Shown here: piece after piece, positions 8,498 through 32,000 of the stretch
Position numbering within the stretch: the first letter of the stretch is position 1
How the letters are laid out: each line of letters begins with the position of its first letter
Assembly: GCF_000012905.2 (NCBI RefSeq)
Contig: NC_007493.2
Span: forward strand, 1,170,001 to 1,202,000
DNA: 32,000 nt
Origin: Cereibacter sphaeroides 2.4.1
GTDB lineage: Bacteria; Pseudomonadota; Alphaproteobacteria; Rhodobacterales; Rhodobacteraceae
Direction: 5' to 3'
Translations under genes and position numbers: made by a program
Notes under the pieces: model-generated
Told to the model about the DNA's origin: nothing
The model's database searches: none
What the model saw: the letters and a program-made list of their open reading frames with translations, nothing else

Positions 8498-10048
8498 TCA
8501 GGCCTCGCCGTCGCCCGCCAGCATCTCTTCCGCGGCCTCGGGGACGGGCTCCTCTTCGTCGGAGGCCGTCAGGCTCGGGATGCGGAAGCTGCGGAGCAGG
8601 AAGTCCGGCACATGGTCGCCCATGCCCACCACGCGTTCCTCGCGGCGGTCGCGGTCACGCTCGCGCCGGTTGTTGCCGCCCTCGCGGCGCTCGTCGCGCC
8701 GCTCTTCGCGGCGGGGCGGGCGCTCCTCGCGCACTTCCCGCACTTCGGGAACGGCCGCGGCCGGGGCTTCCACGGCCTCGACCCGGGGCTCCTCGCGCCG
8801 GTCGCGGTCGCGGCCGCGACGGCCGCGCGCAGGGCGTTCGGACCGCTCGCCGCGTGCGTTGTCACGCTCGGGCCGGTCGGGGCGATCCTCGAGGCTGAAG
8901 CCCTCGGGCAGCTCGCCGCGCGGGATCGCCTGTTTCACGAGGCTCTCGATGGCGGTCACATGCTTCTCGTCCGACGGCACGGCGATCGTGTAGGCCTTGC
9001 CCTTCCGGCCCGCGCGGCCGGTCCGGCCGATGCGGTGGACGTAATCCTCGGGGTGGGTCGGCACGTCGAAGTTGAACACATGGCTCACCGCCGGAATGTC
9101 GAGCCCGCGCGCGGCCACGTCGGAGGCTACGAGCAGGTGCAACGACCCGTCGCGGAACCCGTCGAGCGTCTTCATGCGCTGCGACTGTTCGAGATCGCCA
9201 TGGATGGGCGACGCGTTGAAGCCGTGCTGCTTCAGCGACTTGGCCACCACGTCCACGTCCATCTTCCGGTTGCAGAAGATGATCGCGTTGGTGCAGGCCT
9301 CGCCTTCGGCCCGGATCAGCGCCCGCAGGACGGCGCGCTTGTCGGCGAAGCTACGCTCCTTCCGCGTCGGTGTGACCTGGATGAGCTTCTGCTCGATCGT
9401 CTCGGAGGTCGTGGCCTGCCGCGCCACCTCGATCTTCACCGCGCCGGTGAGGAAGGTGTTGGTGATCCGCTCGATCTCGGGCGCCATGGTGGCCGAGTAG
9501 AACAGCGTCTGGCGCGTGAAGGGCGTCAGCGAGAAGATGCGCTCGATATCCGGGATGAAGCCCATGTCGAGCATCCGGTCGGCCTCGTCCACCACCATGA
9601 TCTGCACGCCGGTGAGCAGAAGCTTGCCGCGCTCGAAATGGTCGAGGAGGCGTCCCGGGGTGGCGATCAGCACGTCCACGCCGCGGTCGATCAGCTTGTC
9701 CTGCTCGGTGAAGGAGACGCCGCCGATCAGCAGCGCCTTCGAGAGCTTGGAGTGCTTGGCATAGATGTCGAAATTCTCGGCCACCTGGGCTGCAAGCTCG
9801 CGCGTCGGGCAGAGCACGAGGCTGCGCGGCATCCGGGCGCGCGCGCGGCCCTTGCCGAGGATGGTGATCATGGGCAGCGTGAAGCTGGCGGTCTTGCCGG
9901 TGCCGGTCTGGGCGATGCCCAGCACATCCTTGCCTTCCAGCGCATGCGGGATGGCCTGCGCCTGGATCGGGGTGGGCGTTTCGTAGCCGGCTTCCTGCAC
10001 GGCCTTCAGCACGCGGGGATCCAGCGCGAGGTCGGAGAACTTGGTCAT
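8498..10048 (-). CDS. rhlE: ATP-dependent DEAD-box RNA helicase with an Arg/Glu-rich C-terminal extension
   Basis: It carries the Q-motif (GYETPTPIQAQAIP), Walker A (AQTGTGKT), DEAD (VVDEADRML), SAT, and HRIGRTGRAG. The start is taken at the ATG at 10048 (MTKFSDL), with an AGGA Shine-Dalgarno 5 nt upstream. The track ORF extends further, to 10174. Confidence 0.9.
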   Translation of the reverse strand: MTKFSDLALDPRVLKAVQEAGYETPTPIQAQAIPHALEGKDVLGIAQTGTGKTASFTLPMITILGKGRARARMPRSLVLCPTRELAAQVAENFDIYAKHSKLSKALLIGGVSFTEQDKLIDRGVDVLIATPGRLLDHFERGKLLLTGVQIMVVDEADRMLDMGFIPDIERIFSLTPFTRQTLFYSATMAPEIERITNTFLTGAVKIEVARQATTSETIEQKLIQVTPTRKERSFADKRAVLRALIRAEGEACTNAIIFCNRKMDVDVVAKSLKQHGFNASPIHGDLEQSQRMKTLDGFRDGSLHLLVASDVAARGLDIPAVSHVFNFDVPTHPEDYVHRIGRTGRAGRKGKAYTIAVPSDEKHVTAIESLVKQAIPRGELPEGFSLEDRPDRPERDNARGERSERPARGRRGRDRDRREEPRVEAVEAPAAAVPEVREVREERPPRREERRDERREGGNNRRERDRDRREERVVGMGDHVPDFLLRSFRIPSLTASDEEEPVPEAAEEMLAGDGEA

Positions 10049-19424: not shown

Positions 19425-20208
19425 GGGCCTCTCTCGTTTTCGATCATCTGCTTAGACGAGCGGGCGCCGGGGGTAAAGCACGCAGGTCCGGCACACGGCC
19501 CGAGGCGCCTGCATGTGGTCTGCGCGTGAGCTTTCGAACCGGAGGGCGGGTCTCTGCGGGGAACCATCCCGGACCCCGCGTGTTGCGGGGGCTCGGACGG
19601 GGCCACGCGGCCCTCGGTCAAGCCGCCCAACCGTTCATCGTAGGAGGTCCATGCCCGTGCTGCGCCGCCGCAGAAGACCGATGCAGGTGCAGCGGCGAGG
19701 CCCCGCCTGCGGCGGGAAACGGACCTTGATCTTCCCGGAGGTTCGCCGGTGGTTGGGGCAGGGGCGTCCGGTTCTTCACCTTGCGCGCACCGTGCGGGGC
19801 GTTCGTTCTACCTGGGGATGTTGCAATTACGTCCTTGAGTTGCAGAGGATTCCAGGATCACCGCAGGGCGGGAACTATCAATCGCAGCCTTGAAAAATGC
19901 CTAGAATCGGCGAGGATCATAAGGGCTGAAGCCTCGCCAGAGAATCACCCTCACCCGTCGGTGGAGCCCAGTGTCCTTTATGATTACGACGAGGCAATTT
20001 CGCGGGTGCAGCAAGAATCCGCACAACCGCGATGAATAAACCGCCCTGAAAATGGGCATGTCTTGACACTTTGGCGAAAGCGTTAGAAATTCTTGTTCTC
20101 ATTTGGACAATAATCAACCCGGAAGTCTTGGCACGACATGGCTCAGTAATTTCTGGATTAAAGTCGGTCCGTGCCTGAGTGGCGACACTCAAAAGCAACA
20201 GGTGTTTC

Positions 20209-20922
20209 ATGGAATTCAATCCACAATCGTCTCTGACTCCGGACAACGTCAGTCCGGATCACCTCTACCTGTCCTCGCTGCCACAGGTCGCCCAGGCGGC
20301 CTCTGCCCCCGTGGGCGGGGTGCTGAAGCGGCTCATCGACGTGGCCATCGCGGTGACGGCGCTGATCGCGCTCGCGCCGCTCATGATCGGCGTGGCGCTG
20401 ATCATCTGGTTCGGCAGCAACGGCCCGATCCTCTACGGCCACCAGCGCGTGGGGTTCGGCGGGCGGACCTTCCGCTGCTGGAAGTTCCGCTCGATGGTGG
20501 TGGACGGCGACGTGGTGCTCGAACGCCACCTGCGCGCCAACCCCGAGGCGCAGCGGGAATGGGAGCGTGACCGCAAGCTTCGCAAGGACCCGCGGGTGAC
20601 CCCCATCGGCGCCGTGATCCGGATGCTGTCGATCGACGAACTGCCGCAGCTGTTCAACATCCTCGCGGGCGAAATGAGCGTCGTGGGCCCCCGTCCGGTG
20701 GTCGCCGCCGAGCTGCGCCGCTACCGCGGGTCGGCCGGTCACTATCTGCGCACCCGCCCGGGCCTCACCGGCATGTGGCAGGTGAGCGGCCGCAGCGACC
20801 TCAGCTACCGGCAGCGCGTCCTGCTCGACCGCTACTATGTGATGCGCTGGACGGTGGTTTCCGACCTCGCGATCATCCTGCGTACGGTCCCGGCGGTGCT
20901 TCGCTCGCGCGGCTCCTGCTGA
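20209..20922 (+). CDS. exoY: Undecaprenyl-phosphate sugar phosphotransferase (bacterial sugar transferase family, ExoY-like priming enzyme)
   Basis: KRLIDVAIAVTALIALAPLMI (TM helix), FRCWKFRSM, DPRVTPIGAVIRMLSIDELPQLFNILAGEMSVVGPRP and RPGLTGMWQVSGRS are present. These are the hallmark PF02397 motifs, and the size and C-terminus resemble rhizobial ExoY. The start could be the GTG at 20179 or the ATG at 20209. Confidence 0.88.
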   Translation: MEFNPQSSLTPDNVSPDHLYLSSLPQVAQAASAPVGGVLKRLIDVAIAVTALIALAPLMIGVALIIWFGSNGPILYGHQRVGFGGRTFRCWKFRSMVVDGDVVLERHLRANPEAQREWERDRKLRKDPRVTPIGAVIRMLSIDELPQLFNILAGEMSVVGPRPVVAAELRRYRGSAGHYLRTRPGLTGMWQVSGRSDLSYRQRVLLDRYYVMRWTVVSDLAIILRTVPAVLRSRGSC

Positions 20923-20993
20923 CCTCCCACTCCTTTTGGCAGCGGCCGCGGCGGAAGCTCCCGCCGCGCCTTCATGTTCAGAAAGGTATCCGA

Positions 20994-22226
20994 ATGGCTG
21001 CCCTGCGCCGTCACCTCCTTCCCCTGTTCGTCGTGGCGCTCCTGCCCGGCGTTGCTCTGGCCGACAGCTACACGATCAGCGAGAGCGACCTGCTTCGCCT
21101 GCGGGTGCTGGAATGGCAGCCCGTCGACGGCACCATGCGCGAGTGGGAGGCGATGACGGGGGAATATCGCGTCAATGCCGACGGCACGATCTCCGTCCCG
21201 TTTCTCGGCCCGGTCGAGGCCGCAGGCCACACGCCCGCCCAGCTCGGCACGCTGATCGCCGACGGGCTGATGGAGCGCCTGGCGCTGCCGGACATGCCCG
21301 ACGCGACCATCGAGATCGCCGAATACCGCCCCATCATCGTCGCGGGCCATGTGCGCGAGCCGGGCGAGGTCGTCTTCCGCCCGGGTCTGACCGCACGGCA
21401 GGCCATCGCCATGGCGGGCGGCCCCAGCGACGAGATCCGCAGCACGCCCGCCCTCGTGCGCGACCTGATCTCCGAGGAGGGGGCGCTGCGCATCCTGCTC
21501 GACAGCCGCGAGGGCATGATGGCCCGGCGCGCCCGGCTTCTGGCCGAGCGGGACAACCAGACCGAGCTCGGCCCGGTGCCCGAACTCGACACGGCGCGGG
21601 GCCGCGCGCTCCTGGCCGAAGAGAAGTCCTTCATGGATCTCCGCCGCGATCAGGTGGACCGGAACCTCGCGGCCATCGACGCCCAGAGCGAGCTTCTGAA
21701 GGCCGAGATCGAGGCGCTGCAGGCGAAGACCGGCCAGCTCGAGACCCAGCGCACGCTGGCCGAGAAAGAGACCGCCAACGCCAAGAACCTCTCGGAGCGG
21801 GGCCTCGTCGCCAGCGGTCGCCTGTTCGAGACCCAGCGCACCCTGTCGACGGTCGAGAGCCAGCTGCTCGACACCTCCACCGCCATCCTGCGCGCGCGTC
21901 AGGGCATCACCACCGCCGAGCGCGACCGGATCGCGCTGATCGACGGACGGTCGTCCGAGATCGCCGCGCAGCTGCAGGAGGTCGAGGCGCAGATCCTCGA
22001 GATGGACCGCAAGATCGACACGCAGCGCAGCCTGTCGGTGTCGCTCCTGAGCCAGGCGGGCGGGAAGGATGTGGCGGCCGATCCCTCGACCATTGCCGCC
22101 ATGAGCGATGTCGTGGTGATGCGCTTTGCGGGCAACGAGATGCGCCAGATCCCCGACGCGATGGACGTCCGGCTCGAACCGGGCGACATGGTGCAGATGA
22201 CCCTGCGGGCGCCGTCTACGAACTAG
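20994..22226 (+). CDS. exoF: Polysaccharide export protein (Wza/ExoF family) with a coiled-coil C-terminal half
   Basis: The start is the ATG at 20994 (MAALRRHLLPLFVVALLPGVALA signal peptide). A Poly_export-like segment (DLLRLRVLEW...YRVNADGTISVPFLGPVEAAG.TPAQL), an SLBB-like segment (IIVAGHVREPGEVVFRPGLTARQAIAMAGG) and then a long heptad-rich region follow. Confidence 0.8.
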   Translation: MAALRRHLLPLFVVALLPGVALADSYTISESDLLRLRVLEWQPVDGTMREWEAMTGEYRVNADGTISVPFLGPVEAAGHTPAQLGTLIADGLMERLALPDMPDATIEIAEYRPIIVAGHVREPGEVVFRPGLTARQAIAMAGGPSDEIRSTPALVRDLISEEGALRILLDSREGMMARRARLLAERDNQTELGPVPELDTARGRALLAEEKSFMDLRRDQVDRNLAAIDAQSELLKAEIEALQAKTGQLETQRTLAEKETANAKNLSERGLVASGRLFETQRTLSTVESQLLDTSTAILRARQGITTAERDRIALIDGRSSEIAAQLQEVEAQILEMDRKIDTQRSLSVSLLSQAGGKDVAADPSTIAAMSDVVVMRFAGNEMRQIPDAMDVRLEPGDMVQMTLRAPSTN

Positions 22227-22401: not shown

Positions 22402-23691
22402 TCAGGCGGCTGCGGTGGGAGGACCGTCCGAGGGCAGGCGCACGTTGCGACGGACGGGGGCGCCGACGGGCAGGCGCGCCTCGCGCATCCGGCGCACGCC
22501 GTAGACCAGGGCTGCCACCAGCATGAGGGTCATGAGGTCGAACTGGGTGTAGCCCACCACCTCGGACATGCTGAGCACGGCGCTGCGCATCATCAGCGCG
22601 GTGAGGAAGATGGACTCGGCCCGGGGCTCGCGGAAGGCCCAGAGCACCGCGAGGCCGAGCGCGCCGAACAGCGCCGCCGCCTGCATCGCCACGCCGATGG
22701 CGCCGATCTCGACCGCGTTCGAGATGAAGGTGTTGTGGAAGTGGAAACCGCGCTTGCCTTCGATGCCGAACTCGCTCCACATCGCCTCGGCCCCGGGGTT
22801 CCCGGGCACCCAGTAGGCCTGGAAGCCCACGCCGGTGAAGGGATGCTGCACGATCTCGCGGAAGGCCAGCGCCCAGAGCTCGGTGCGGCCGGTGAGGGTC
22901 GCGTCCTTGCCCGTCGTCTCGAGGATCAGCGCCATCACCTCGTCCTGCAGCGCGACGAGCAGGATCGTCACCACGATCCCGAGCCCCAGCGTGAAGCCCG
23001 CCAGCAGCAGACGCTGGGTCACGGTGAGCCAGCGGCCGAGGAAGAAGGGCAGGGCGAAGGCCAGTGCCGCGCCGGTGGCCAGAAGCTGGCCCGCCGACTG
23101 GGCCTGGATCAGCAGGAAGGTTCCGAGCAGGAAGGCCCCCGTCGCCACCAGCCGCCAGCTGCGCGGCTGATTGCGGTCGAGCATGATGGCGAAGGCGCAG
23201 AGCATCAGCGTCGACATCGGCAGCGAGAAGGCGTTCTTCGAGCCGAAGATGCCGAGCCAGCCGTTCCCGTCCGACCGGACGCGCCCGAAGAGCACGCTCA
23301 GGACGGCCGCCAGCAGATGCGCGCTGAAGAGGATGCGCAGGAAGGTGAGCGGCGACAGCCGGTTGGCGATGGCCACCGCAATCGCGAAGGTCACGCAGAG
23401 CTGGATGCCGTAGCGCAGGCTCAGCGAGGCATATTGCGACCAGAGCACCGTGAAGAGGCACCAGCCCGCAAGCGCGAAGATCATCCAGTAGCGGCGGATC
23501 TCGAGAAGCGCGGTATGGGGCCGCCTTACGACGAGGAGGCAGCCCGAGGCGAGGAAGCCCGCCGCCGCGATCGAGCCCACCCACTGCACGAGCAGCAGGG
23601 ACAGGATCGTGAGGAACGCCAGAACCGCCGTCGGACAGACGTCGATGAAGACCCCGGCGGAGCGGGGGGGGCGCGGTCGGACGGCGGTCAT
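22402..23691 (-). CDS. O-antigen ligase / Wzy-type polysaccharide polymerase family membrane protein (ExoQ-like)
   Basis: 429-aa polytopic protein with the Wzy_C-type motif FHFHNTFISNAVEIGAIG near the large periplasmic loop. It starts 16 nt downstream of the stop of the upstream GH16 gene on the same strand. Confidence 0.75.
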   Translation of the reverse strand: MTAVRPRPPRSAGVFIDVCPTAVLAFLTILSLLLVQWVGSIAAAGFLASGCLLVVRRPHTALLEIRRYWMIFALAGWCLFTVLWSQYASLSLRYGIQLCVTFAIAVAIANRLSPLTFLRILFSAHLLAAVLSVLFGRVRSDGNGWLGIFGSKNAFSLPMSTLMLCAFAIMLDRNQPRSWRLVATGAFLLGTFLLIQAQSAGQLLATGAALAFALPFFLGRWLTVTQRLLLAGFTLGLGIVVTILLVALQDEVMALILETTGKDATLTGRTELWALAFREIVQHPFTGVGFQAYWVPGNPGAEAMWSEFGIEGKRGFHFHNTFISNAVEIGAIGVAMQAAALFGALGLAVLWAFREPRAESIFLTALMMRSAVLSMSEVVGYTQFDLMTLMLVAALVYGVRRMREARLPVGAPVRRNVRLPSDGPPTAAA

Positions 23692-23707: not shown

Positions 23708-24490
23708 TCAATTCTCCAGCTGACATAGCACGGATTCGGGGAACTGGCACGCCTCTCCCGGCGCGGTCCAGGCTACCCAATCGACCTCGAGCGCGACCGG
23801 TTTCTGCGGCGCGCGGAAGGCCCCCATCCATTCGGTCAGGACATCGGTGCTCCAGTGGCTGAAGAAGATCTTCTGCGCGGTCACGGGCAGGGTCTCGGTC
23901 GCCTCGTGGACGAGCTTGCCATCGACGAACCAGCGGATGCGCTCGGGCTCCCAGATGAAGGAGAACGTATGCCAGTCCTCGTCGGTCGGCGGGTCGAGCG
24001 CGACCTTGGCCCCGTTCTTCGGCTCGCCCGAGACATAGGTGTTCACATCGACCGAAGAGGTGTTGCGGGTCAGGATCTCGAAATCGATCTCGTCATGGGG
24101 CTCGCCATGGACGGGGCCGATGTAGCTGAAGAAGGCCGCATTCAGCCCCGAAGCCCGGTGATCGGTGCGCACGCGGGCTTCGAACGTGCCATGCAGGTAG
24201 CGCTCCTGCGTCTGGATCTCCGAACAGCGGTTCTTGCCCTGGCCCGAGGGGTCGGTGAAATACATTAGCTTCAGGATGCCGTCATCGGCGCGCACCGCCT
24301 TCTGCGACCAGTCGCAGTTCTGGTGCGGGCCGTTGGTCCAGCCGTCCGAGATGAACCAGCGCTTGCCGTTGATGCGGTCGAAATCCTCGCGGAAGGAGGC
24401 GGGCCCGTCCTGCGCCGCAGCGGGCAGGGCGAGGAGAAGGGGCAGGCTCGCCGCAAGGCAGCGGCGCAGAAGGGTCTGACGGGGACTCAT
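23708..24490 (-). CDS. exoK: Secreted glycoside hydrolase family 16 endo-beta-1,3-1,4-glycanase (ExoK-like)
   Basis: It has a signal peptide (LPLLLALPAAAQDG), the GH16 catalytic motif HDEIDFEIL (ExDxE), and the flanking segments RWFISDGWTNG, IRWFVDGKLVHE and KIFFSHW. Confidence 0.85.
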   Translation of the reverse strand: MSPRQTLLRRCLAASLPLLLALPAAAQDGPASFREDFDRINGKRWFISDGWTNGPHQNCDWSQKAVRADDGILKLMYFTDPSGQGKNRCSEIQTQERYLHGTFEARVRTDHRASGLNAAFFSYIGPVHGEPHDEIDFEILTRNTSSVDVNTYVSGEPKNGAKVALDPPTDEDWHTFSFIWEPERIRWFVDGKLVHEATETLPVTAQKIFFSHWSTDVLTEWMGAFRAPQKPVALEVDWVAWTAPGEACQFPESVLCQLEN

Positions 24491-24695
24491 CGGGGGCTCC
24501 GTTTCTGTTCGGTCCAGAGGTTAGGCGGCGCGGGCCTCCGTGGCGACCTCTCCGCGATCACATTGGCAACAGCTTGCCGCGGTGCCGCATAAGTTGGCAG
24601 ACTGGCCCGCACGGCCGCGCCTTGGCGCCGCGCCGGCTTACGCCCTTCGCACAGGGCGGTTACACAGGAACGATTCGGGCTGGGGCGGAGGACTT

Positions 24696-26126
24696 ATGCG
24701 GATTTCGGTGCTGATGGCGAACTACCGCGGTGCGGCCTACCTGCCCGAAGCGGTCGAATCGGTCCTGCGCCAGAGCCACACGGACCTCGAGCTCATCGTG
24801 GTGGACGATGCCTCGGGCGACGAGAGCGTGGCACTGCTCCAAGAGATCGCGGCCACGGACGACCGCGTCCGGGTGATCGCGATGGCGCAGAACGGCGGCC
24901 CGTCGGCGGCGCGCAACCGCGCCCTCGAAGCGGCCAGCGGCGACTGGCTCGCGGTGATGGATTCCGACGATGTGCTCCACCCCGACCGTCTGGCGCGGCT
25001 TCTCGCGGCGGCCGAGGCGCTCGAGGTCGATGCGGTGGCCGATGACATGCTGTTCTTCGGCGAGACGCCGGATGCGAGCGGCCGCACGCTGCTCGAGAGC
25101 CTGCATCTGGTCGAGCCGATGGCGGTGGATGCGGCGACCTTCGTCGCGGCGAACGGCGGGTCGGACGATCTTCCGCCCATGGGCTACCTGAAGCCTCTGG
25201 TGCGCCGCGAGGCCTGGGGCGCCCTGCGCTACGACGAGACGCTGCGGGTGGGCGAGGATTACGACCTCTATCTCCGGCTTCTCCTGTCGGGCGCGCGGCT
25301 CGCGCTGCTGCCCGAGGCGCTCTATCTCTACCGTCGCCACTCCGCCTCGATCTCGCACCGGCTGTCGGTGGGCACGCTGGAGCCGCTTCTCGCGGCACAC
25401 GACCGGTCGGCGGCGGGCGAGACCGATGCGGCGCTTCTCGCCATGATGCAGCGCAGGCGCGCGGGGCTGGTGCGGCTGCTTGCCTTCGAGCATCTGGTGG
25501 CCGCGATCAAGGCCCGGCGGCCGGTGGCGGCCCTCGCGGCCCTCCTGCGCCGGCCGGTTCTGACGCTCGAGCTGGTGCGGAGCCTGCGCGAGCGGCTGGG
25601 GCGGCGGGCGGCCGAGGCGGTCGAGCCGCATCCCTTGTCGATCGTGCTCTCGGCCGATCCGCGGCCCGTGGGCGAGGGGCAGCGGCTGGTGGCGGTGCCG
25701 CCGCTGCTGCCGCCCGAGCATCCCCATCCCTGGCCACCGGCACAGCAGGCGGCGCTTCTTTCCGATCTCGCGGCGCGCCACGAGCTCGACATCTGCGCCG
25801 AGGGCGAGGAGGGTCTGTTCTGGCTCTGGCTGGTGCCACGCTGGACCCGCGCCGAGGTGGTGCTGCCCGAGGGCAGCTGGGCAGAGCTGCCCCCCGGAGC
25901 CGAGCTCGCCGCCTGGACGCTCGAGGAGGAGGAAGAGGAGACCGCGAAGGACGAGCCCATCGGCGGCGAGTTCGACACGGCCTTCGATCCGGACCTCGAA
26001 GAGGACGTGGCCGCGGAGGAGCTCGGAGACCCGGCGGCGCCGGACGGAGAGCCATCGCGGCGGACCGTCTGGCGCGACCCGTCCGACGAGGACGAGGCCG
26101 AGGAGCGGGCCGGCCGGTCGCGCTGA
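24696..26126 (+). CDS. Family 2 glycosyltransferase with a roughly 230-aa non-GT C-terminal extension ending in a highly acidic tail
   Basis: The start is the ATG at 24696 (GGAGGA Shine-Dalgarno just upstream): MRISVLMANYRGAAYLPEAVESVLRQSHTDLELIVVDDASGDES...NGGPSAARNRALEAASGDWLAVMDSDD (DxD). The C-terminus contains EEEEEETAKDE...DEDEAEE. Confidence 0.82.
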   Translation: MRISVLMANYRGAAYLPEAVESVLRQSHTDLELIVVDDASGDESVALLQEIAATDDRVRVIAMAQNGGPSAARNRALEAASGDWLAVMDSDDVLHPDRLARLLAAAEALEVDAVADDMLFFGETPDASGRTLLESLHLVEPMAVDAATFVAANGGSDDLPPMGYLKPLVRREAWGALRYDETLRVGEDYDLYLRLLLSGARLALLPEALYLYRRHSASISHRLSVGTLEPLLAAHDRSAAGETDAALLAMMQRRRAGLVRLLAFEHLVAAIKARRPVAALAALLRRPVLTLELVRSLRERLGRRAAEAVEPHPLSIVLSADPRPVGEGQRLVAVPPLLPPEHPHPWPPAQQAALLSDLAARHELDICAEGEEGLFWLWLVPRWTRAEVVLPEGSWAELPPGAELAAWTLEEEEEETAKDEPIGGEFDTAFDPDLEEDVAAEELGDPAAPDGEPSRRTVWRDPSDEDEAEERAGRSR

Positions 26127-26141: not shown

Positions 26142-27098
26142 TCAGACCGGCAGCAGGAACCGCTCGGCCCGGGGCGGGGCAGGTGGGCGCAGGGCGGCGA
26201 TCTTGTCCCGCGCGACCCCCTTCGCGATGGGAAGGAAGCGCGCGGGCGGGGCGAGCGCAAAGCCGAGGGCCGCGCCGAGGCCTGCCTCGGCCTTCCGGTC
26301 GAGGAACTGGCGCAGCAGGAGCTTGGCCTGCACCTGCCGCAGATGGCGGCGCATCGCCTCCTGCGTGGCGGGCGAAGCGGGCATCTCCAGATGCGCCCGG
26401 CAGCAGGCCTCCAGCGCCGCCAGATCCGCCGTCCGATGCCGCCCCGAGAGCGACGCGCCGCGCTGGACCGCGGCATAGCCTACGGCCCGCGTCAGGCCGA
26501 AGCGCGCGCCCAGCAGAAGCATCCGCATGTAGAGGTCGAAATCTTCGCCGAGCCACATGCGCTCGTCATAGCGGAGCCCGTGGCGGGTGAGGAAGGCGCG
26601 CGACATCACGGGCTTCAGAAAGCCCAGTTCGCCGCGGTGCACCCCCTGCGCCAGATTGCCGAGCGCGAACCGTTCGGCGTCGAGCATCTCCACCTCGCGC
26701 GGGGCCGCCGGCAGGTTGGTGGGATCGAGCCGGGCCGCATGCTCGGGCGTCACGAAGACGATGTTGTCGGCCGCGAGATCGAGATCCGGGTCGAGCCGCG
26801 CGAAGCGGCCGGGCAGGAAGAAGTCGTCGGCGTCGAGTATCGCGATGCGCGGCGCCTGCGAGAGCGCCACAGCGCGGTTGCGCGCCGCCGACGGCCCGCC
26901 GTTCTGCGCCTGCCGCTCGACGATCAGCCGGCCGCTGCCATCGGAGGCCGCAAGCGCGGCCTCGGCGGTGGCATCGGAAGAGGCATCGTCGACCACGACC
27001 ACCTCGGCCACCTCGGCTTCGGCGAGGGCAGAGGTCACGGCCTGCGCGATGGTGGCTTCGGCATTGTAGGCGGCGATGATGACGCAGATGTCGCTCAT
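26142..27098 (-). CDS. Family 2 glycosyltransferase
   Basis: 318 aa: MSDICVIIAAYNAEATIAQAVTSAL...VVVVDDASSDAT...NGGPSAARNRAVALSQAPRIAILDADD. The start ATG overlaps the stop of the upstream nucleotidyltransferase gene as ATGA. Confidence 0.85.
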   Translation of the reverse strand: MSDICVIIAAYNAEATIAQAVTSALAEAEVAEVVVVDDASSDATAEAALAASDGSGRLIVERQAQNGGPSAARNRAVALSQAPRIAILDADDFFLPGRFARLDPDLDLAADNIVFVTPEHAARLDPTNLPAAPREVEMLDAERFALGNLAQGVHRGELGFLKPVMSRAFLTRHGLRYDERMWLGEDFDLYMRMLLLGARFGLTRAVGYAAVQRGASLSGRHRTADLAALEACCRAHLEMPASPATQEAMRRHLRQVQAKLLLRQFLDRKAEAGLGAALGFALAPPARFLPIAKGVARDKIAALRPPAPPRAERFLLPV

Positions 27099-28231
27099 GC
27101 GGCTTTTCCTTCACGGCGGGCAATCAGGCCGGAGCGGATCAGCCCCTTCAGCCAGAGGCGGTGGGCTTCGGAGGATTTCGCCGCCAGAGTCTCGCGCGCG
27201 AAGCGCAGGGGATGGCGGCCCGAGAGCGCCCAGAGGATGCGGCTCCGGCGTGGCCAGTCGAGGTCCGGTTGCCAGGGCGCAACGAGCATCCGGCGCAGAT
27301 CCGGCGCGGGCAGGGCGCCGAGCGGGTTCGACCCCTGCGCGTAAGGTCGGGGAGAGAGGCCCTCGAACAGGGTGTCGACCCCGTGGCTGGCGAGCGCGAG
27401 CGTTTCGCTCAGCCCTTGCGCGGCCGCGATGCCGGGCAGGGCGCGGGCCTCGTCGGGGCTGAGCCGGTCGAGGCTCGCCCGCAGATCGCAGAGATGGCCG
27501 GCGCAGGGCTCCTGCGCGACGAAGGCCTTCACCACGCCGATGGCCGCGACGAGGCAGCGGTCGGGCCCGGACACCATCGGCACCCTCTGCCCGGCGTAGG
27601 ACATGTCCGTGGCGCGGGTAAGGAAGTCCGCCGTATGCCGCGGGCGCGGTGCGCCGGGTTGCTGGAGCCGGTGGTGGAGGTCCACCACAGGTCCGCCCTC
27701 GGGGCGGCGGAAATGCTGCTCGCCCAGATGCCGCGTCCACCAGTCGGCGAGCTCTGCCTCCTGTGCGACGTAGCCCGCCGCGCGCAGGGCCGCCGCAGCG
27801 GTGGCCAGATCGGCCTCTGCCACCAGCAGATCGACGTCACCCGTGGGCTTCCAGCAGGGGCCGCCATAGAGCGCGATCTGCTGGAGCGGCCCCTTGAACT
27901 GGACGTGGGCGATCCCCGCCTCCTGCATCAGCCGCGCCACTTCGAGGCTCGTGCGCAGGCTGTGGCCGTTCCGCGCGGCGGTCTGAAGCCGCATCGTCTC
28001 GAGCTGCGGCGCCATCGCCGACCAGTCGGCGGGAAGGTCGGCGGGGCGGGGCGCAAGGAAAAGTCCCACCTTGTTCAGCCGCCCCATCTCGAAGAGCACC
28101 CGGGGCGTGACGCCCTCGGGAAGCTCCGCGGGGTCGCCGAAGCTGCGGGCGAGCGCCCGGCGCAGGGCCTCGGTCTCCGTCCGGCACGCGTGTTCACGCA
28201 CGAGGGCGAACTGTTCAGGCGCGAAGGTCAT
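27095..28231 (-). CDS. Uncharacterised nucleotidyltransferase-fold protein (NTP_transf_5 / PF14907-like), a candidate lasso-peptide tailoring enzyme
   Basis: About 378 aa from the ATG at 28231 (MTFAPEQFALV...); the track ORF begins at a GTG at 28273. The segment KGPLQQIALYGGPCWKPTGDVDLLV...VVDLHHRL resembles the pol-beta-type G[SG]...DxD core of this family. It is transcribed divergently from the lasso precursor gene. The family call comes from motif recall and is not verified. Confidence 0.65.
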   Translation of the reverse strand: MTFAPEQFALVREHACRTETEALRRALARSFGDPAELPEGVTPRVLFEMGRLNKVGLFLAPRPADLPADWSAMAPQLETMRLQTAARNGHSLRTSLEVARLMQEAGIAHVQFKGPLQQIALYGGPCWKPTGDVDLLVAEADLATAAAALRAAGYVAQEAELADWWTRHLGEQHFRRPEGGPVVDLHHRLQQPGAPRPRHTADFLTRATDMSYAGQRVPMVSGPDRCLVAAIGVVKAFVAQEPCAGHLCDLRASLDRLSPDEARALPGIAAAQGLSETLALASHGVDTLFEGLSPRPYAQGSNPLGALPAPDLRRMLVAPWQPDLDWPRRSRILWALSGRHPLRFARETLAAKSSEAHRLWLKGLIRSGLIARREGKAA

Positions 28232-28407
28232 CCCGTCCCTTTCGTCCGGATCCTGCCCCCCATCTCGAATCACTCGCAGGAGGGAGAGGCGCTCCTACCT
28301 CAAAATGAGGTCGGAGTCGCCATTCGAGTGAGGATCTTCGCGTTAAGGTTGTTGAATCTGATGATTTTTCGGGCAGCATCTTTTTCGCGGAAAGATTATT
28401 GCTCATT

Positions 28408-28436
28408 TTGACCTCAACTGCCGATTGCATTATTCA
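28408..28436 (+). promoter_or_regulatory. Candidate sigma70-type promoter for the lasso precursor operon
   Basis: TTGACC (28408-28413), 17 nt, then TATTCA (28431-28436), within the AT-rich divergent intergenic region about 140 nt upstream of the precursor start. This is a sequence match only. Confidence 0.25.
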
Positions 28437-28576
28437 CGTCATCTGATAAATATTTTCGTTAGACTGTCAGAGTGCGCTGCGCTCGGACTCTCCCCGCGTT
28501 GACTTCATGCTCGTCCGGACACAGGCTTTGGATCGGTCCTATAGGCCGTAGATACCTTATCCTGAGGAAATTTGAC

Positions 28577-28729
28577 GTGGCAAACAACATCCAAACCCTT
28601 GCGTACGAAGCTCCCGTGCTGCGCGTTCATGGCACGCTCGAAGCGATGACCCATGGTGCGACCGACGGCTGGGCCCTCGACGCCTCGTTCCCGGTGGACA
28701 CTCCCAAGGGCGACCTGACCTTCTCCTGA
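28577..28729 (+). CDS. Lasso peptide precursor (A): 26-aa leader plus 24-aa core
   Basis: The GTG start has a GAGGA Shine-Dalgarno 8 nt upstream. The peptide is (M)ANNIQTLAYEAPVLRVHGTLEAMTH|GATDGWALDASFPVDTPKGDLTFS. The leader matches YxxPxLx3Gx5Tx exactly (Y10, P13, L15, G19, T25). The core starts with Gly and has Asp at position 9. It lies immediately upstream of the B1, B2 and C genes. Confidence 0.85.
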   Translation: MANNIQTLAYEAPVLRVHGTLEAMTHGATDGWALDASFPVDTPKGDLTFS

Positions 28730-28751: not shown

Positions 28752-28780
28752 GGTCGAGGCAGTCCATGACTGCCTCGACC
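28752..28780 (+). promoter_or_regulatory. Perfect 13-bp stem-loop between the precursor and B1 genes (candidate partial terminator or mRNA stabiliser)
   Basis: ggtcgaggcagtc-cat-gactgcctcgacc lies 23 nt after the precursor stop. There is no immediate T-run (tatgaaagacatttt follows). Confidence 0.5.
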
Positions 28781-28809: not shown

Positions 28810-29076
28810 ATGACCGTGAGCATCAGGGCGGCCGAAGGCTGCGTTCCCTGCGCGTTCGGCGATGGCATCGCCATCTTCGACACGAGCAGCAACTCCTATT
28901 TCAGCATGAACGCCGTGGGCGAGTTCGTGTGGTCGCAACTCGACCAGCCGATCACGCTCGAGGATCTGGTCGGGCGCGTGGCCGACCGTTACCGGATCGA
29001 ACCGACGGTCTGCGAGGGCGACATCCGCAAGCTGGTGGATGATCTCGCGGCGCACCGGCTCGTGACCCTGTCCTGA
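28810..29076 (+). CDS. Lasso peptide biosynthesis protein B1 (PqqD-family RiPP recognition element)
   Basis: 88 aa with a PqqD-like pattern: IAIFDTSSNSYFSMNAVGEFVWSQLDQPITLEDLVGRVADRYRIEPTVCEGDIRKLVDDLAAHRLV. The GTG at 28816 is an alternative start. Confidence 0.85.
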   Translation: MTVSIRAAEGCVPCAFGDGIAIFDTSSNSYFSMNAVGEFVWSQLDQPITLEDLVGRVADRYRIEPTVCEGDIRKLVDDLAAHRLVTLS

Positions 29077-29086
29077 CGGAGGCTCC

Positions 29087-29560
29087 ATGCGTCGACTGCG
29101 CCGCATCCTCTCGCTCCGGCCGGCCGAGGCATGGGCCTTGTGTCAGGCGCTGGTGACGGTGGCCGCGGTCCGCCTCGCCATTGCCCGGCGGCGGACGGAC
29201 GAGGTGCGGGCCGCAACGGCGGCGCTCGGGGCCGAACGTCAGGCGCCCCAGTCCGACCTGCGGGTCGTGGCCTGGAGCGTGACGGCGGCGGCGCGGCTGA
29301 TCCCCGGCGCCACCTGTCTCACGCAGGCGCTGGCCGGGCAGAGGATCCTCGCCCGCAAGGGCTATGCCTCGACGGTGCGGCTGTCCCTGCCGGCGGGACG
29401 CGACAGCGACTTCCGCCCCCATGCTTGGCTGCTGGCCGGCAATGTCATCGCGCTCGGCGGCACGGCGACGGATTATCGCCATCACCGCGCGCTTCTGGAT
29501 TATGAAAGCTCGGGCCGGGCCGATCCGGTTTCCGAACCTGCGACGGGAGCCGGGCAATGA
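29087..29560 (+). CDS. Lasso peptide biosynthesis protein B2 (transglutaminase-fold cysteine leader peptidase)
   Basis: 157 aa with the catalytic-Cys context GATCLTQALAGQRILARKG and the His context FRPHAWLLAGNVIAL typical of lasso B2 proteins (PF13471-like). The stop overlaps the C start as ATGA. Confidence 0.85.
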   Translation: MRRLRRILSLRPAEAWALCQALVTVAAVRLAIARRRTDEVRAATAALGAERQAPQSDLRVVAWSVTAAARLIPGATCLTQALAGQRILARKGYASTVRLSLPAGRDSDFRPHAWLLAGNVIALGGTATDYRHHRALLDYESSGRADPVSEPATGAGQ

Positions 29561-31437
29561 GCGCGCTTGCAGCCTTCGTCACGCTGGGCGGAGATCCGGG
29601 CGAGGCCCAGAGCCGCGTCCTGTCGATGCTGTCCGCCATGCCCACGCGCGGCACGGAGCTCCGGGTGCGCGCGCTGACCGCGGGCGTGGCGCTGGGGCAC
29701 GGGCGGCCCGCGGGGCGCGGCGGCCTCGGGCCCTGGCGGTTGCGGCCGGGCGGCCCGGTCCTGACCGGCACCGTGCGGCTCGACAACGGTCCCGAGCTGC
29801 GCCGCGCGCTGGGGCTGGCCGAGGCCTCCGACGCCGAGACGGTGCTCGCGGTCTATGACCGCTGGGGGCTCGATCTGCCGCTCCATCTCGACGGCGACTT
29901 CGCGCTGGCCCTGTGGGATCCTGTGGCCGCGCGCCTCATCGGGCTGCGCGACCGGTTCGGCGTCCGCCCGTTCCTCTACCGCGCGACGCCGCAGGCGGTG
30001 GCGGTTGCCTCCGGCATCGAGGCGCTGGTGGCGGCCTTTCCCGCCTGCGAGCCCGCCCTCGACGAGGTCTGGATCGCGGAATATCTATCTGGCCAGCCCA
30101 CCTGTGCCCGCCGGACCGTCTATCGCGGCATCTCCCGGCTCGAGCCCGCCCACATGCTGCTGGTCGAGAAGGGCCGGACCGAGGTCCGTCGCTACTGGCA
30201 GCTGGAGGTGGCGCCGCGGCGCCGCGCCGATCCGCCCGAAGCGCTGCTCGAACTGCTCGACCGCTCCGTGACGGCGCGGATGCAGGGCGGCCCGGTGGGC
30301 TCGATGCTGAGCGGAGGGCTCGATTCCGGCACGGTCTCGATGCTGGCTTCACGCCGGTCGGAGGGGCCGCTGCCGGTCATCTCGATGAAGTTCGACGATC
30401 ATCCGGAGATCGACGAGAGCGAGTGGATCGCGAAGATCCATGCTGCCGGCCGGTTCCGTCCGGTCTGGATCGACGGTCGTGACGCCCATGGTGGCGATGT
30501 GGCCGAGCTGCTGGCCGAGCAGGGGGGGCCCTTCTTCGCGCCCAATCTGGCCACCTCGCGCTGGCTCTACCGGCGCGCGGCGGAGGCCGGCGTCGAGATT
30601 CTGCTCGACGGCCATGGCGGCGACGAGGTGATCTCCTTCGGCGTGGCCCGGCTGACCGAACTGGCCTCCGAGGCCCAATGGCGGACCCTCTGGCAGTCGA
30701 CGGCCGCCGTGTCGGACCTGTTCGGCGGATCGCGGCGGGAGTTCTTCCTGAATTCGATGGCGCAGGGCGCGCAGTCCCGCTGGCTGCGCGCCATGGCGCG
30801 GCGGCTGAATGTGGGCGCAAAGCGCGATCCCCGGGCGTGGCGGCAGGCGCTCCATCCGGCGCTGGTGGCGCGGACGGGCCTCGTCCAGCGCGTGCAGGAG
30901 GCGGCCGGCGCGCGCAAGCGGGGGGCCACCGACGACATCCGCCAGCATGTGGCGACCCTGACCGCCCCGCGCTATCCGACCACGCTCGAAGTGCTCGACC
31001 GCGCAGCCACGCTCTGCGGGATCGAGCCGCGCTATCCGTTCCTCGAGCGGCGGCTGATCGAACATTGCGTGGCCCAGCCCGCCGCGGCGAAGTTCCACGA
31101 TGGCATGACACGCGCCCTCCTGCGCGATGCGGTGCGGGGGCTTCTGCCCGACGAGGTGCGGCTGCGCACCAGCAAGACCAATTTCACCCCCAACGTCCGC
31201 GCGCGCATGCTGACGAGCTGGGGCGACAATCTCAACCGGATCGCCGGCTGCAATCCCGGCCGGATCGGCGACTATGTCGATCTGGCCGTCATCCGCGAGG
31301 GCATCCAGCGGCTGCGGGCGGGCGAGCCCGACCAGCCGGCCCTCCTCCAGACCATGCGGGCGGTCGTGCTCGACGAATGGCTGCGCGGCGGATCGTCCGC
31401 GCTGGCCCCCCGCCTCGACAGAAGGACCCCCGCATGA
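29557..31437 (+). CDS. Lasso peptide cyclase C (asparagine synthetase-like, ATP-dependent macrolactam synthetase)
   Basis: 626 aa with an AsnB-like fold and the PP-loop SMLSGGLDSGTVS. The N-terminal nucleophile Cys2 is absent (the protein starts MSAL), as in lasso cyclases. It lies in the A-B1-B2-C context. Confidence 0.88.
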   Translation: MSALAAFVTLGGDPGEAQSRVLSMLSAMPTRGTELRVRALTAGVALGHGRPAGRGGLGPWRLRPGGPVLTGTVRLDNGPELRRALGLAEASDAETVLAVYDRWGLDLPLHLDGDFALALWDPVAARLIGLRDRFGVRPFLYRATPQAVAVASGIEALVAAFPACEPALDEVWIAEYLSGQPTCARRTVYRGISRLEPAHMLLVEKGRTEVRRYWQLEVAPRRRADPPEALLELLDRSVTARMQGGPVGSMLSGGLDSGTVSMLASRRSEGPLPVISMKFDDHPEIDESEWIAKIHAAGRFRPVWIDGRDAHGGDVAELLAEQGGPFFAPNLATSRWLYRRAAEAGVEILLDGHGGDEVISFGVARLTELASEAQWRTLWQSTAAVSDLFGGSRREFFLNSMAQGAQSRWLRAMARRLNVGAKRDPRAWRQALHPALVARTGLVQRVQEAAGARKRGATDDIRQHVATLTAPRYPTTLEVLDRAATLCGIEPRYPFLERRLIEHCVAQPAAAKFHDGMTRALLRDAVRGLLPDEVRLRTSKTNFTPNVRARMLTSWGDNLNRIAGCNPGRIGDYVDLAVIREGIQRLRAGEPDQPALLQTMRAVVLDEWLRGGSSALAPRLDRRTPA

Positions 31438-32000
31438 GTGCCCTCCAGTCGCTCCGCCCCGCACTGCGCACCGCCTACGGCTTGGCCGTTCGGTCGGACA
31501 TCGACCTGCCCGAACTCGAGCCCCTGCCGGGCGACGGGGCTGCGGATCTGACCGTGCGCCGCGGCGCGCTTCCGGAGTTGCCGGGCGAGGGAGGCTTCCG
31601 CACGCGCTTCGCGCCCGAGCGGGCCGAGCTCTGGTGGCAGACGGTCGGCACCTTCCGTGTCGAGCCGGGCCTCGTGACGGCAAGCCCCCATGCCGGCGTC
31701 TCCGAGGATCTGGTGGCCTATCCGCTTCTGGGCTCGGTGCTGGCGCTGGCGCTGGAGCAGCTCGGCCTCTTCACGATCCATGCGAGCGCCGTCTCGGTCG
31801 GCGGCCATGGCGTGGTGATGATGGGCGACAAGGGCGCCGGCAAATCCACCACCGCCACGGCGATGATCCGGGCGGGCCATCCGCTGATTGCCGACGATAT
31901 CGTGGCGGTGGACGAGGGGTTCCGGCTGCGCCCCGGCTTCCCGCAGGTGAAGCTCTCGCCCGCGGCGGCGGCGGCCTTCGACGCGCCCGATGCGGTCCAC
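31434..32000 (+). CDS. HPr-kinase-like serine kinase (lasso peptide kinase candidate), 3'-truncated by the window edge
   Basis: This ORF is not in the supplied track because it is open at the window end. The ATG at 31434 overlaps the C stop as ATGA. My translation is MSALQSLRPALRTAYGLAV...LGLFTIHASAVSVGGHGVVMMGDKGAGKSTTATAMIRAGHPLIADDIVAVDEG. HASAV followed by a GxxGxGKST P-loop and then ADD is the HprK C-terminal-domain pattern. Confidence 0.75.
   Translation, partial: MSALQSLRPALRTAYGLAVRSDIDLPELEPLPGDGAADLTVRRGALPELPGEGGFRTRFAPERAELWWQTVGTFRVEPGLVTASPHAGVSEDLVAYPLLGSVLALALEQLGLFTIHASAVSVGGHGVVMMGDKGAGKSTTATAMIRAGHPLIADDIVAVDEGFRLRPGFPQVKLSPAAAAAFDAPDAVH

Follow-up and report, generated by a model that had tools for sequence, protein, structure and literature searches.

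To which system belong the nucleotidyltransferase and glycosyltransferase genes that lie between a lasso peptide cluster and an exopolysaccharide (EPS) cluster in Cereibacter sphaeroides 2.4.1? The stretch of DNA analysed, called here the window, covers 32,000 nucleotides of chromosome 1 (contig NC_007493.2, positions 1,170,001 to 1,202,000), and all coordinates are counted from its first letter. The nucleotidyltransferase (NTase) gene, named here N, encodes a protein of 378 amino acids (Pfam PF14907 NTP_transf_5, E 2e-26) and lies on the minus strand at 27095-28231. The family 2 glycosyltransferase (GT2) gene, which encodes 318 amino acids, follows it on the same strand at 26142-27098. An earlier note on this DNA saw in the pair a possible two-gene tailoring module of the lasso peptide or, otherwise, two ordinary genes of the EPS cluster. 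The two genes are coupled but probably belong to two different systems, N to a lasso cassette, which occupies the gap between exoX and exoU, and the GT2 gene, which is exoU, to the EPS cluster.

The coupling is read directly from the sequence, and the coordinates and the overlap that the earlier note had given for the pair are correct. The minus strand at 27103-27090 is GCCGCATGAGCGAC, in which the TGA stop of N and the ATG start of the GT2 gene share the four nucleotides ATGA (27095-27098, minus strand). About 9 nt upstream of the GT2 start codon, and within the N gene, there is a Shine-Dalgarno-like AGGA motif. For N itself the ATG at 28231 is favoured over an upstream GTG at 28273, and Met1 and the N-terminus align in 18 homologues. 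The same 4-nt overlap is found in C. azotoformans, C. changlensis, Rhodobacter sp. NSM, Thioclava and Sagittula (loci L003, L004, L081, L084 and L089) and, because it recurs in these five other genomes, it is no chance feature. In Mesorhizobium the two genes are separated by 4 nt.

The lasso genes begin on the other side of N and are all on the plus strand. The precursor gene A encodes 50 amino acids and initiates at GTG 28577, a small correction to the earlier note (28577-28729). It is followed by B1, a PqqD-like leader-recognition element (28810-29076; PF05402, E 5e-16), B2, a transglutaminase-like leader peptidase (Transglut_core3, 29087-29560; PF13471, E 3e-19), and C, the lasso cyclase (29557-31437; Pfam Asn_synthase and NCBIfam NF033535, E 2e-109). 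The last gene is K, an HPr-kinase-like peptide kinase with the P-loop GDKGAGKST, which is truncated by the window end (31434-32000; PF07475, E 1e-11). Beyond the window, the sister genomes (L081 and L003) have K and then the ABC exporter gene D, a small exoX-like gene and exoP/Wzz. Against NCBIfam the D exporter (L081, 4036-5892) scores highest, at a sub-cutoff 276 bits, with HepA, the family of the heterocyst envelope polysaccharide exporter, ahead of MsbA and of the bacteriocin-exporter families.

Whether the NTase/GT2 pair tracks the lasso genes or the exo genes was the check put forward in the earlier note, and the answer is that the pair splits, N staying with the lasso genes and the GT2 with the EPS genes. 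The survey covered 78 species-level genome loci around NTase homologues and 35 metagenome loci, on which homologues of the local genes were mapped by tblastn. Lasso genes lie within 10 kb of N (20-kb locus) in 74 of the 78 genome loci, and they are present in all 27 metagenome loci that have sequence upstream of N. Among the four genome loci without them, one is a 4-kb contig without upstream sequence (L013) and three are from Paracoccus (L049, L050 and L053), in which N lies with EPS genes and no lasso genes occur within 10 kb. A kinase search found that the L050 contig carries exoY/A-B1-B2-C-K-D at 11.5 kb from N, and the idea of an NTase independent of lasso genes in these three loci was dropped after this finding. 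The Paracoccus N is intact and under purifying selection, with dN/dS of 0.18-0.30. Conversely, N and lasso genes occur without this GT2 in about 20 Sphingomonadales loci, from Sphingomonas, Rhizorhabdus, Sphingobium, Erythrobacter-like genomes, Porphyrobacter, Novosphingobium and Croceicoccus, and also in L005, L092 and L093. In Sphingomonas and Rhizorhabdus, N is the final gene of an A-B1-B2-C-K-D-N operon and such a GT2 is not nearby. A distant NTase homologue, P0019, is found on a 9.5-kb contig only, whose context is uninformative, and M. japonicum is not among the NTase loci or cluster members.

The NTase thus stays with A, B1, B2, C, K and D across four alphaproteobacterial orders, which upholds its proposal as a lasso-associated candidate tailoring enzyme of the PsmN type. 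PsmN, encoded in the pseudomycoidin cluster of Bacillus pseudomycoides, is needed for the +162 Da hexose on phosphorylated pseudomycoidin, as the earlier note had stated correctly (Zyubko et al. 2019, PMC6993621). The same distribution bears on the reading in which the two are ordinary EPS genes, the polysaccharide is the substrate that N modifies, for example with a phospho-substituent as LicD and FKRP do, and the lasso cluster is a chance neighbour. LicD is an NTase-fold phosphotransferase that makes phosphodiesters on glycans, and FKRP, a CDP-ribitol phosphotransferase that acts on glycans, is among the structural matches of N; the Paracoccus N, placed between EPS glycosyltransferase genes and away from A-D, would also fit. 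We hold this reading to be highly improbable, since N is found with lasso genes in nearly all informative loci, some of these loci (the A-B1-B2-C-K-D-N operons of Sphingomonas and Rhizorhabdus) are nearly without EPS genes, and N is absent from the EPS clusters of this type that have no lasso genes.

The GT2 behaves differently. Its catalytic domain is of the GT-A type expected of ExoU (PF00535 Glycos_transf_2, E 4e-24), and among its 1748 homologues at E<1e-10 many are named ExoU by JGI, many of them 55-65% identical; against NCBIfam the GT2s give sub-threshold matches only, with no equivalog at cutoff. Five of the seven sampled contexts of GT2 homologues (L082, L083, L086, L087 and L088) have the same EPS order with neither N nor lasso genes. 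The order Wzz, exoX-like small gene, GT2, second GT2 (GT2b), GH16, Wzy_C and, further on, exoF and exoY, found in L082, L083 and Tabrizicola L086, is the Cereibacter order minus the cassette, with exoF not called in L082. Likewise, the order exoF, exoY, exoX-like gene and GT2 of Aliihoeflea L087 equals that of Mesorhizobium once the cassette is taken out. Shinella L088 has the canonical S. meliloti-type cluster exoZ-Q-F-Y-X-U-V-W-T...H-K-L-A-M-O-N, in which the homologue (54% identity) occupies the exoU slot. An exoX-like gene directly precedes the GT2 homologue in L083, L086, L087 and L088, and a dissimilar open reading frame (ORF) of 194 aa is found there in L082. The window has the same flanks with the cassette between them, and the GT2 is a positional orthologue of ExoU. 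The two remaining contexts, Thioclava L084 and Sagittula L089, have the cassette, and both have the 4-nt overlap of N and GT2; the Sagittula locus was reached via the kinase, an anchor independent of the NTase. The neighbour-joining tree of the GT2 follows host taxonomy, with clusters that have the cassette and clusters that lack it interleaved, and in Paracoccus, Pseudoroseicyclus and Brevundimonas the GT2 lies apart from N.

Judging from these comparisons, the most likely role of the GT2 is to transfer glucose to the repeat unit on undecaprenyl-PP, without involvement of the peptide. Its position after an exoX-type small membrane protein gene, amid exoY, exoF, exoQ, exoK and exoP homologues, is like that of S. 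meliloti ExoU, and the likeness is drawn via the Shinella homologue, the position and the JGI names. Unlike in the S. meliloti exo cluster, the lasso cassette with its seven genes stands between exoX and exoU in C. sphaeroides, and N and exoU are translationally coupled. The view that both genes are simply EPS genes therefore stands for the GT2, an exoU orthologue, and falls for the NTase, which tracks the lasso genes.

It has also been proposed that N and the coupled GT2 are a two-enzyme tailoring module, in which N adds the first sugar to the phosphoserine and the GT2 extends it to give a phospho-oligoglycosylated lasso peptide. Cereibacter, Thioclava and Sagittula all keep the ATGA coupling, and about 45 Mesorhizobium species have the two genes side by side. 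Moreover, PsmN-dependent products bear one or two hexoses, the authors of that work left the involvement of a host glycosyltransferase possible, and a cyanobacterial kinase-lasso cluster has a recognisable glycosyltransferase (PMC6993621). Against such a module, the GT2 occupies the same slot in the five EPS clusters that have neither lasso genes nor N, it is missing in the Sphingomonadales lasso loci with N and in L005, L092 and L093, it is split from N in three genera, and its tree agrees with that of the hosts, whether the cassette is present or not. The GT2 also lacks the co-occurrence with core genes of peptides that ribosomes synthesize and that are modified after translation (RiPPs) that marks a dedicated RiPP-tailoring glycosyltransferase. 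The GT2 is not a lasso-specific partner, as its place in the five lasso-free clusters and its absence from the Sphingomonadales loci indicate, and the module is very unlikely. Two further kinds of candidate for a lasso-specific partner were rejected, hyp125, which has a homologue in the cassette-free Aliihoeflea cluster, and the two-transmembrane exoX/SyrA-like genes, which occur with and without the cassette; because they are present in cassette-free clusters, they are EPS genes.

What N does is approached through its family, its fold and its neighbours. The protein belongs to PF14907 (93.5 bits, cutoff 31.2, E 2.1e-26) and is 99% identical to C. sphaeroides proteins, with Rsph17029_1212 among its cluster members; no NCBIfam family was assigned to it, and a search of PDB sequences with the NTase profile found nothing useful and no relative by sequence. 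An alignment of 19 homologues shows K113, G114, D132, D134, E171 and H186 as invariant. An AlphaFold model of N (pLDDT 89.4) matches, by Foldseek, the minimal nucleotidyltransferases MenT1, LnuA and ANT(2'')-Ia (including entries 5cfs and 4xje) and also FKRP, and D132 and D134 form a putative catalytic, metal-binding DxD on a Pol-beta/ANT(2'')-like fold. The match to FKRP/fukutin (6kal and 6kam) is weak, with a TM score of about 0.25 on the query and without detectable sequence homology; it offers an NTase-fold precedent for an X-phosphate-sugar linkage, as a mechanistic analogy only. PsmN is inactivated by D134A/D136A, and the same two ANT(2'') entries were cited for its fold (PMC6993621). 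N thus shares with PsmN a DxD (at 132/134 and at D134/D136, respectively) and the structural matches, and, like PsmN, it is an uncharacterised NTase-family protein in a cluster with an HPr-kinase-like K and a precursor that ends in Ser; in the window it is encoded with A, B1, B2, C and K. It is reasonable to file N with proteins of the PsmN/BsfN kind on annotated family, fold and motif, and by this analogy the capping of the phosphorylated Ser at the C-terminus, in the manner of PsmN, is its most likely function.

The precursor product is composed of the leader VANNIQTLAYEAPVLRVHGTLEAMTH and the 24-residue core GATDGWALDASFPVDTPKGDLTFS, with Thr at position -2 and a C-terminal Ser, and the core is predicted to form a G1-D9 ring. 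Precursors were recovered from 75 loci, and Ser is the last residue in every one. In the orthologous precursors the core has a 9-residue ring followed by D-A-x-F-P-x-G-T-P-x-G-D/E-L-T-F-S, and the leaders carry YE(T/A)PxL...T with the T at -2. The computed neutral monoisotopic masses are 2449.14 Da for the lasso, 2529.11 Da with a phosphate and 2691.16 Da with a phosphate and a hexose; with a phosphate and UMP the mass would be 2835.14 Da, and with a phosphate and AMP 2858.16 Da. A variant precursor is found in Erythrobacteraceae (L060, L061, L065, L067, L069-L072 and L074-L076), with the core ASGCPDALDATFPAGTPFGDLTCGxEDGxS, which has two Cys (a possible disulfide) and an extension of 4-7 residues and retains the Ser end. 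In the precursor of Rhodobacter sp. NSM (L002/L081, about 9500-9660, minus strand), as extracted, the N-terminal half does not keep the frame of the GTG-GCA-AAC-AAC start that is conserved in the DNA alignment, which may be a frameshift or an assembly error.

In the most likely reading, A-B1-B2-C-K-D and N together form a phospho-lasso cassette that is conserved in Alphaproteobacteria, with N as its seventh gene. By comparison with characterised homologous systems, B1 and B2 would cut off the leader, and C would close the G1-D9 macrolactam. The Pol-beta-type active site of N (K113-G114, D132-x-D134 and E171/D184/H186) would convert the terminal phosphoserine to a phosphodiester, and D would export the finished product. 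The group added by N may be a hexose, by the PsmN analogy, or a nucleotidyl intermediate may be formed as an alternative. The GT2 is the exoU orthologue of a succinoglycan-type cluster with exoY, exoF, exoQ/Wzy_C, exoK/GH16 and two GT2 genes, whose exoP and exoX are expected just past the window. The seven-gene unit fills the exoX-exoU gap, D-K-C-B2-B1-A running on one strand and N on the opposite strand, and the ATGA overlap is the junction of the two systems.

That lasso clusters can combine a kinase with a nucleotidyltransferase was known before, and what is new is that a cluster of this K/N type is inserted in an exo-type EPS cluster. In the Firmicute psm cluster, psmN lies between B2 and D and there is no EPS context, unlike in C. 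sphaeroides, where N is divergent from A and reads into exoU and the cassette is inside an EPS cluster. The bsf cluster of Bradymonas sediminis (bsfA/B1/B2/C/D/K/N) has a proteobacterial kinase and a predicted nucleotidyltransferase (PMC10368454). The C. sphaeroides cluster is likewise a proteobacterial lasso cluster with both K and N, but BsfK acts on Ser3 and the bsf flanking genes are unrelated, whereas here the precursor ends in Ser and the cassette is surrounded by exo-type EPS genes. It also resembles the proteobacterial kinase-lasso system of Sphingobium yanoikuyae, whose kinases act on the precursor by (poly)phosphorylation of its C-terminal Ser (Zhu et al. 2016, reviewed in PMC8498205).

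The association with EPS genes is conserved, and it was invisible to the earlier note and is captured by neither of its alternatives. The cassette is nested in or adjoins EPS genes in at least seven gene orders from Rhodobacterales, Rhizobiales, Caulobacterales and Sphingomonadales, and the EPS genes around it are succinoglycan-type exoP/Wzz, exoK/GH16, exoY and exoQ. In Cereibacter and Thioclava the order is Wzz exoX / D..A / N exoU / GT2b / exoK exoQ / exoF exoY. In Sagittula it is exoY / exoU N / A..D / Wzz GT2 GT2 hyp exoQ exoK, and in about 45 Mesorhizobium species it is exoF exoY exoX / D..A / N exoU hyp exoK ugd GT GT GT wzx. Paracoccus and Falsirhodobacter have exoU .. N / GT2b / exoK exoQ exoY / A..D / exoX Wzz, with no Wzy_C match in the Falsirhodobacter locus. 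Pseudoroseicyclus has wzx .. D..A / N ... Wzz exoU GT2b exoK, and Brevundimonas has Wzy_C GT2 / D..A / N / GT2 exoU .. Wzz. Erythrobacteraceae and Novosphingobium have Wzz and a BBP2 porin / D..A / N, and Sphingomonas and Rhizorhabdus have GT2 .. A..D N / GH16-RTX. Since such EPS clusters also occur with no cassette, the peptide would be an accessory and not a requirement. Full-text literature searches found no description of a lasso-EPS association and only antiSMASH-type mentions of the C. sphaeroides lasso cluster.

This recurrent position raises the possibility that the EPS system has the lasso peptide among its working parts, as a peptide linked to the polysaccharide or one that regulates EPS. 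In one variant N takes the (poly)phosphorylated C-terminal Ser as an NTP-like substrate and links it by a phosphodiester to an EPS sugar or to one of the lipid-linked repeat unit, which would give a polysaccharide capped or decorated with the peptide. In the other the exported peptide directly controls polymerisation, chain length or processing of EPS via exoP, exoK or the exoX/exoY pair. In both the peptide would not be a free antibiotic, and exoU would build the acceptor or a co-regulated product with no tailoring of the peptide. The gene orders described above agree with such a role. The conservation of the precursor core across four orders, which is unusual for an antibiotic in an arms race, fits an endogenous partner better. 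The polyphosphorylated Ser made by proteobacterial lasso kinases (PMC8498205) would give an NTP-like leaving group for an NTase fold, and PsmN products are phosphodiester-linked hexoses (PMC6993621). On the other side, all of this evidence is positional, EPS clusters of this type function with no cassette in them, and Sphingomonas has only the GH16-RTX gene and one GT2 nearby. The arrangements may also share one ancestral insertion, so that the independent events would be fewer than seven. We know of no lasso-EPS joining chemistry of this kind, and a functional part for the peptide in EPS is plausible but rather unlikely as an explanation of the locus.

If the link were functional, lasso peptides would gain a physiological role, be it in the biology of surface polysaccharides, in the formation of biofilms or in symbiosis, and the odd chemistry of PsmN-type enzymes would be explained. 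The conserved orthologous peptide sits in the exo-type EPS clusters of tractable, well-studied hosts, namely Cereibacter sphaeroides and many Mesorhizobium, and other hosts are common marine and soil Alphaproteobacteria. The EPS cluster of M. loti R7A/MAFF303099 is exoQFYXUKTLAMONP (mlr5249-mlr5276), in which locus tags outnumber named genes, and exoU mutants in these model strains have strong symbiotic phenotypes (PMC8227245). In many other Mesorhizobium species the cassette is placed exactly between exoX and exoU.

Several points weigh against the assignment of N and exoU to two systems. N and the GT2 are adjacent in four lineages (Cereibacter/Rhodobacter, Thioclava, Sagittula and Mesorhizobium), with the 4-nt overlap in the first three, and this retained adjacency could reflect selection for the coupling rather than inheritance of one insertion. 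The N of Paracoccus and Falsirhodobacter lies among EPS genes, where it adjoins GT2b/GH16/Wzy_C at 1.5-11 kb from A-D, and therefore N is not strictly a cassette gene by position. The homology of N and PsmN is drawn from annotated family, fold and motif, and the enzymology and expression at the locus are derived from sequence and homologous systems. The distribution of the cassette may be explained either by insertion or by repeated loss.

With N assigned to the cassette and the GT2 to exoU, the junction has consequences for expression. The cassette sits in the exoX-exoU gap, and therefore N reads directly into exoU via the ATGA overlap; exoU is now probably transcribed from the AT-rich divergent promoter region of the lasso cassette. 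The spacer that separates N from the divergent precursor gene (28232-28576) is exactly the 345 nt that had been proposed, and its GC content is low (50.7%, against 68.7% for the window). An alignment of five Cereibacter/Rhodobacter spacers shows blocks common to Cereibacter species, which are ATTGCAT (about 28424-28430), TGATAAATATTTTCG (about 28444-28458), GTTGACTT (about 28498-28505) and a GAGGA ribosome-binding site, and the first three may be operators or promoter elements that serve the two divergent operons, N-exoU and lasso. A simple sigma-70 scan of the spacer gave one weak promoter-like match (minus strand, 28424-28395), and a terminator scan of the 345 nt gave nothing convincing. In practice, peptide tailoring and EPS assembly would be expressed together. 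Polar effects on exoU are likely for insertions in N or in the upstream spacer, and therefore EPS and peptide phenotypes could be confused.

A 12-bp perfect hairpin, GGTCGAGGCAGT-CCATG-ACTGCCTCGACC, lies between the precursor stop and B1 (28752-28780, plus strand) and is without a downstream T-run. It is a possible attenuator between A and B1 that may set the ratio of precursor to enzymes, as such elements do in other RiPP operons.

The rest of the window is occupied by housekeeping genes up to 19424 (by Pfam, nuoLMN-like, birA, coaX, RNase J, DEAD-box helicase, RF3, tatBC, nlpD, pcm and surE) and then by the EPS cluster. The exoY-like priming phosphoglycosyltransferase gene (20179-20922, plus strand; Bac_transf, E 6e-59) is followed by an exoF-like ORF for a Poly_export protein (20775-22226, plus strand; E 8e-14). 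As listed, this ORF has a 148-nt overlap with exoY and is 73 residues longer than the 410-aa orthologue of Rhodobacter sp. NSM (L081), and its true start is probably the Met at about 20994, ahead of the signal-peptide-like MAALRRHLLPLFVVALL. On the minus strand lie genes for an ExoQ-like polymerase/ligase of the Wzy_C family (22402-23691; PF04932, E 1e-15), to which no NCBIfam family was assigned, and for an ExoK-like GH16 endo-beta-1,3-1,4-glycanase (23708-24490; E 1e-32), which scores 323 bits against NCBIfam ExoK, slightly under the cutoff of 350.

At the edges of EPS-plus-lasso clusters sulfotransferase genes (PF13469 and PF03567) are found in Thioclava (L084, 19383-20153) and Sagittula (L089, 148-792), and the enzymes may act on the EPS or on the peptide; sulfotransferases also lie beside Firmicute kinase-lasso clusters (PMC8498205). 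A GH16-RTX fusion gene adjoins N in Sphingomonadaceae, Novosphingobium (L076) and Croceicoccus (L078), as in Rhizorhabdus L063 (11003-13063) and in L057, L064, L068 and L077. We take this gene to resemble that of ExsH, the secreted succinoglycan depolymerase of S. meliloti. In Paracoccus sp. R86501 (L050/L085, JAXHPZ010000004.1, 52.5 kb) an EPS-plus-lasso supercluster occurs with RepA, ParA, an RTX-Hint protein and an IS transposase and is probably plasmid-borne and mobile. The GT2b of the window (24540-26126, plus strand, by Pfam), which belongs to the EPS cluster, is convergent with exoU and is syntenic in the lasso-free clusters L082, L083 and L086. It encodes 528 aa with a long acidic low-complexity C-terminal tail, EEEEEETAKDEP...DEDEAEERAGRSR, and its homologues elsewhere have 382-497 aa.

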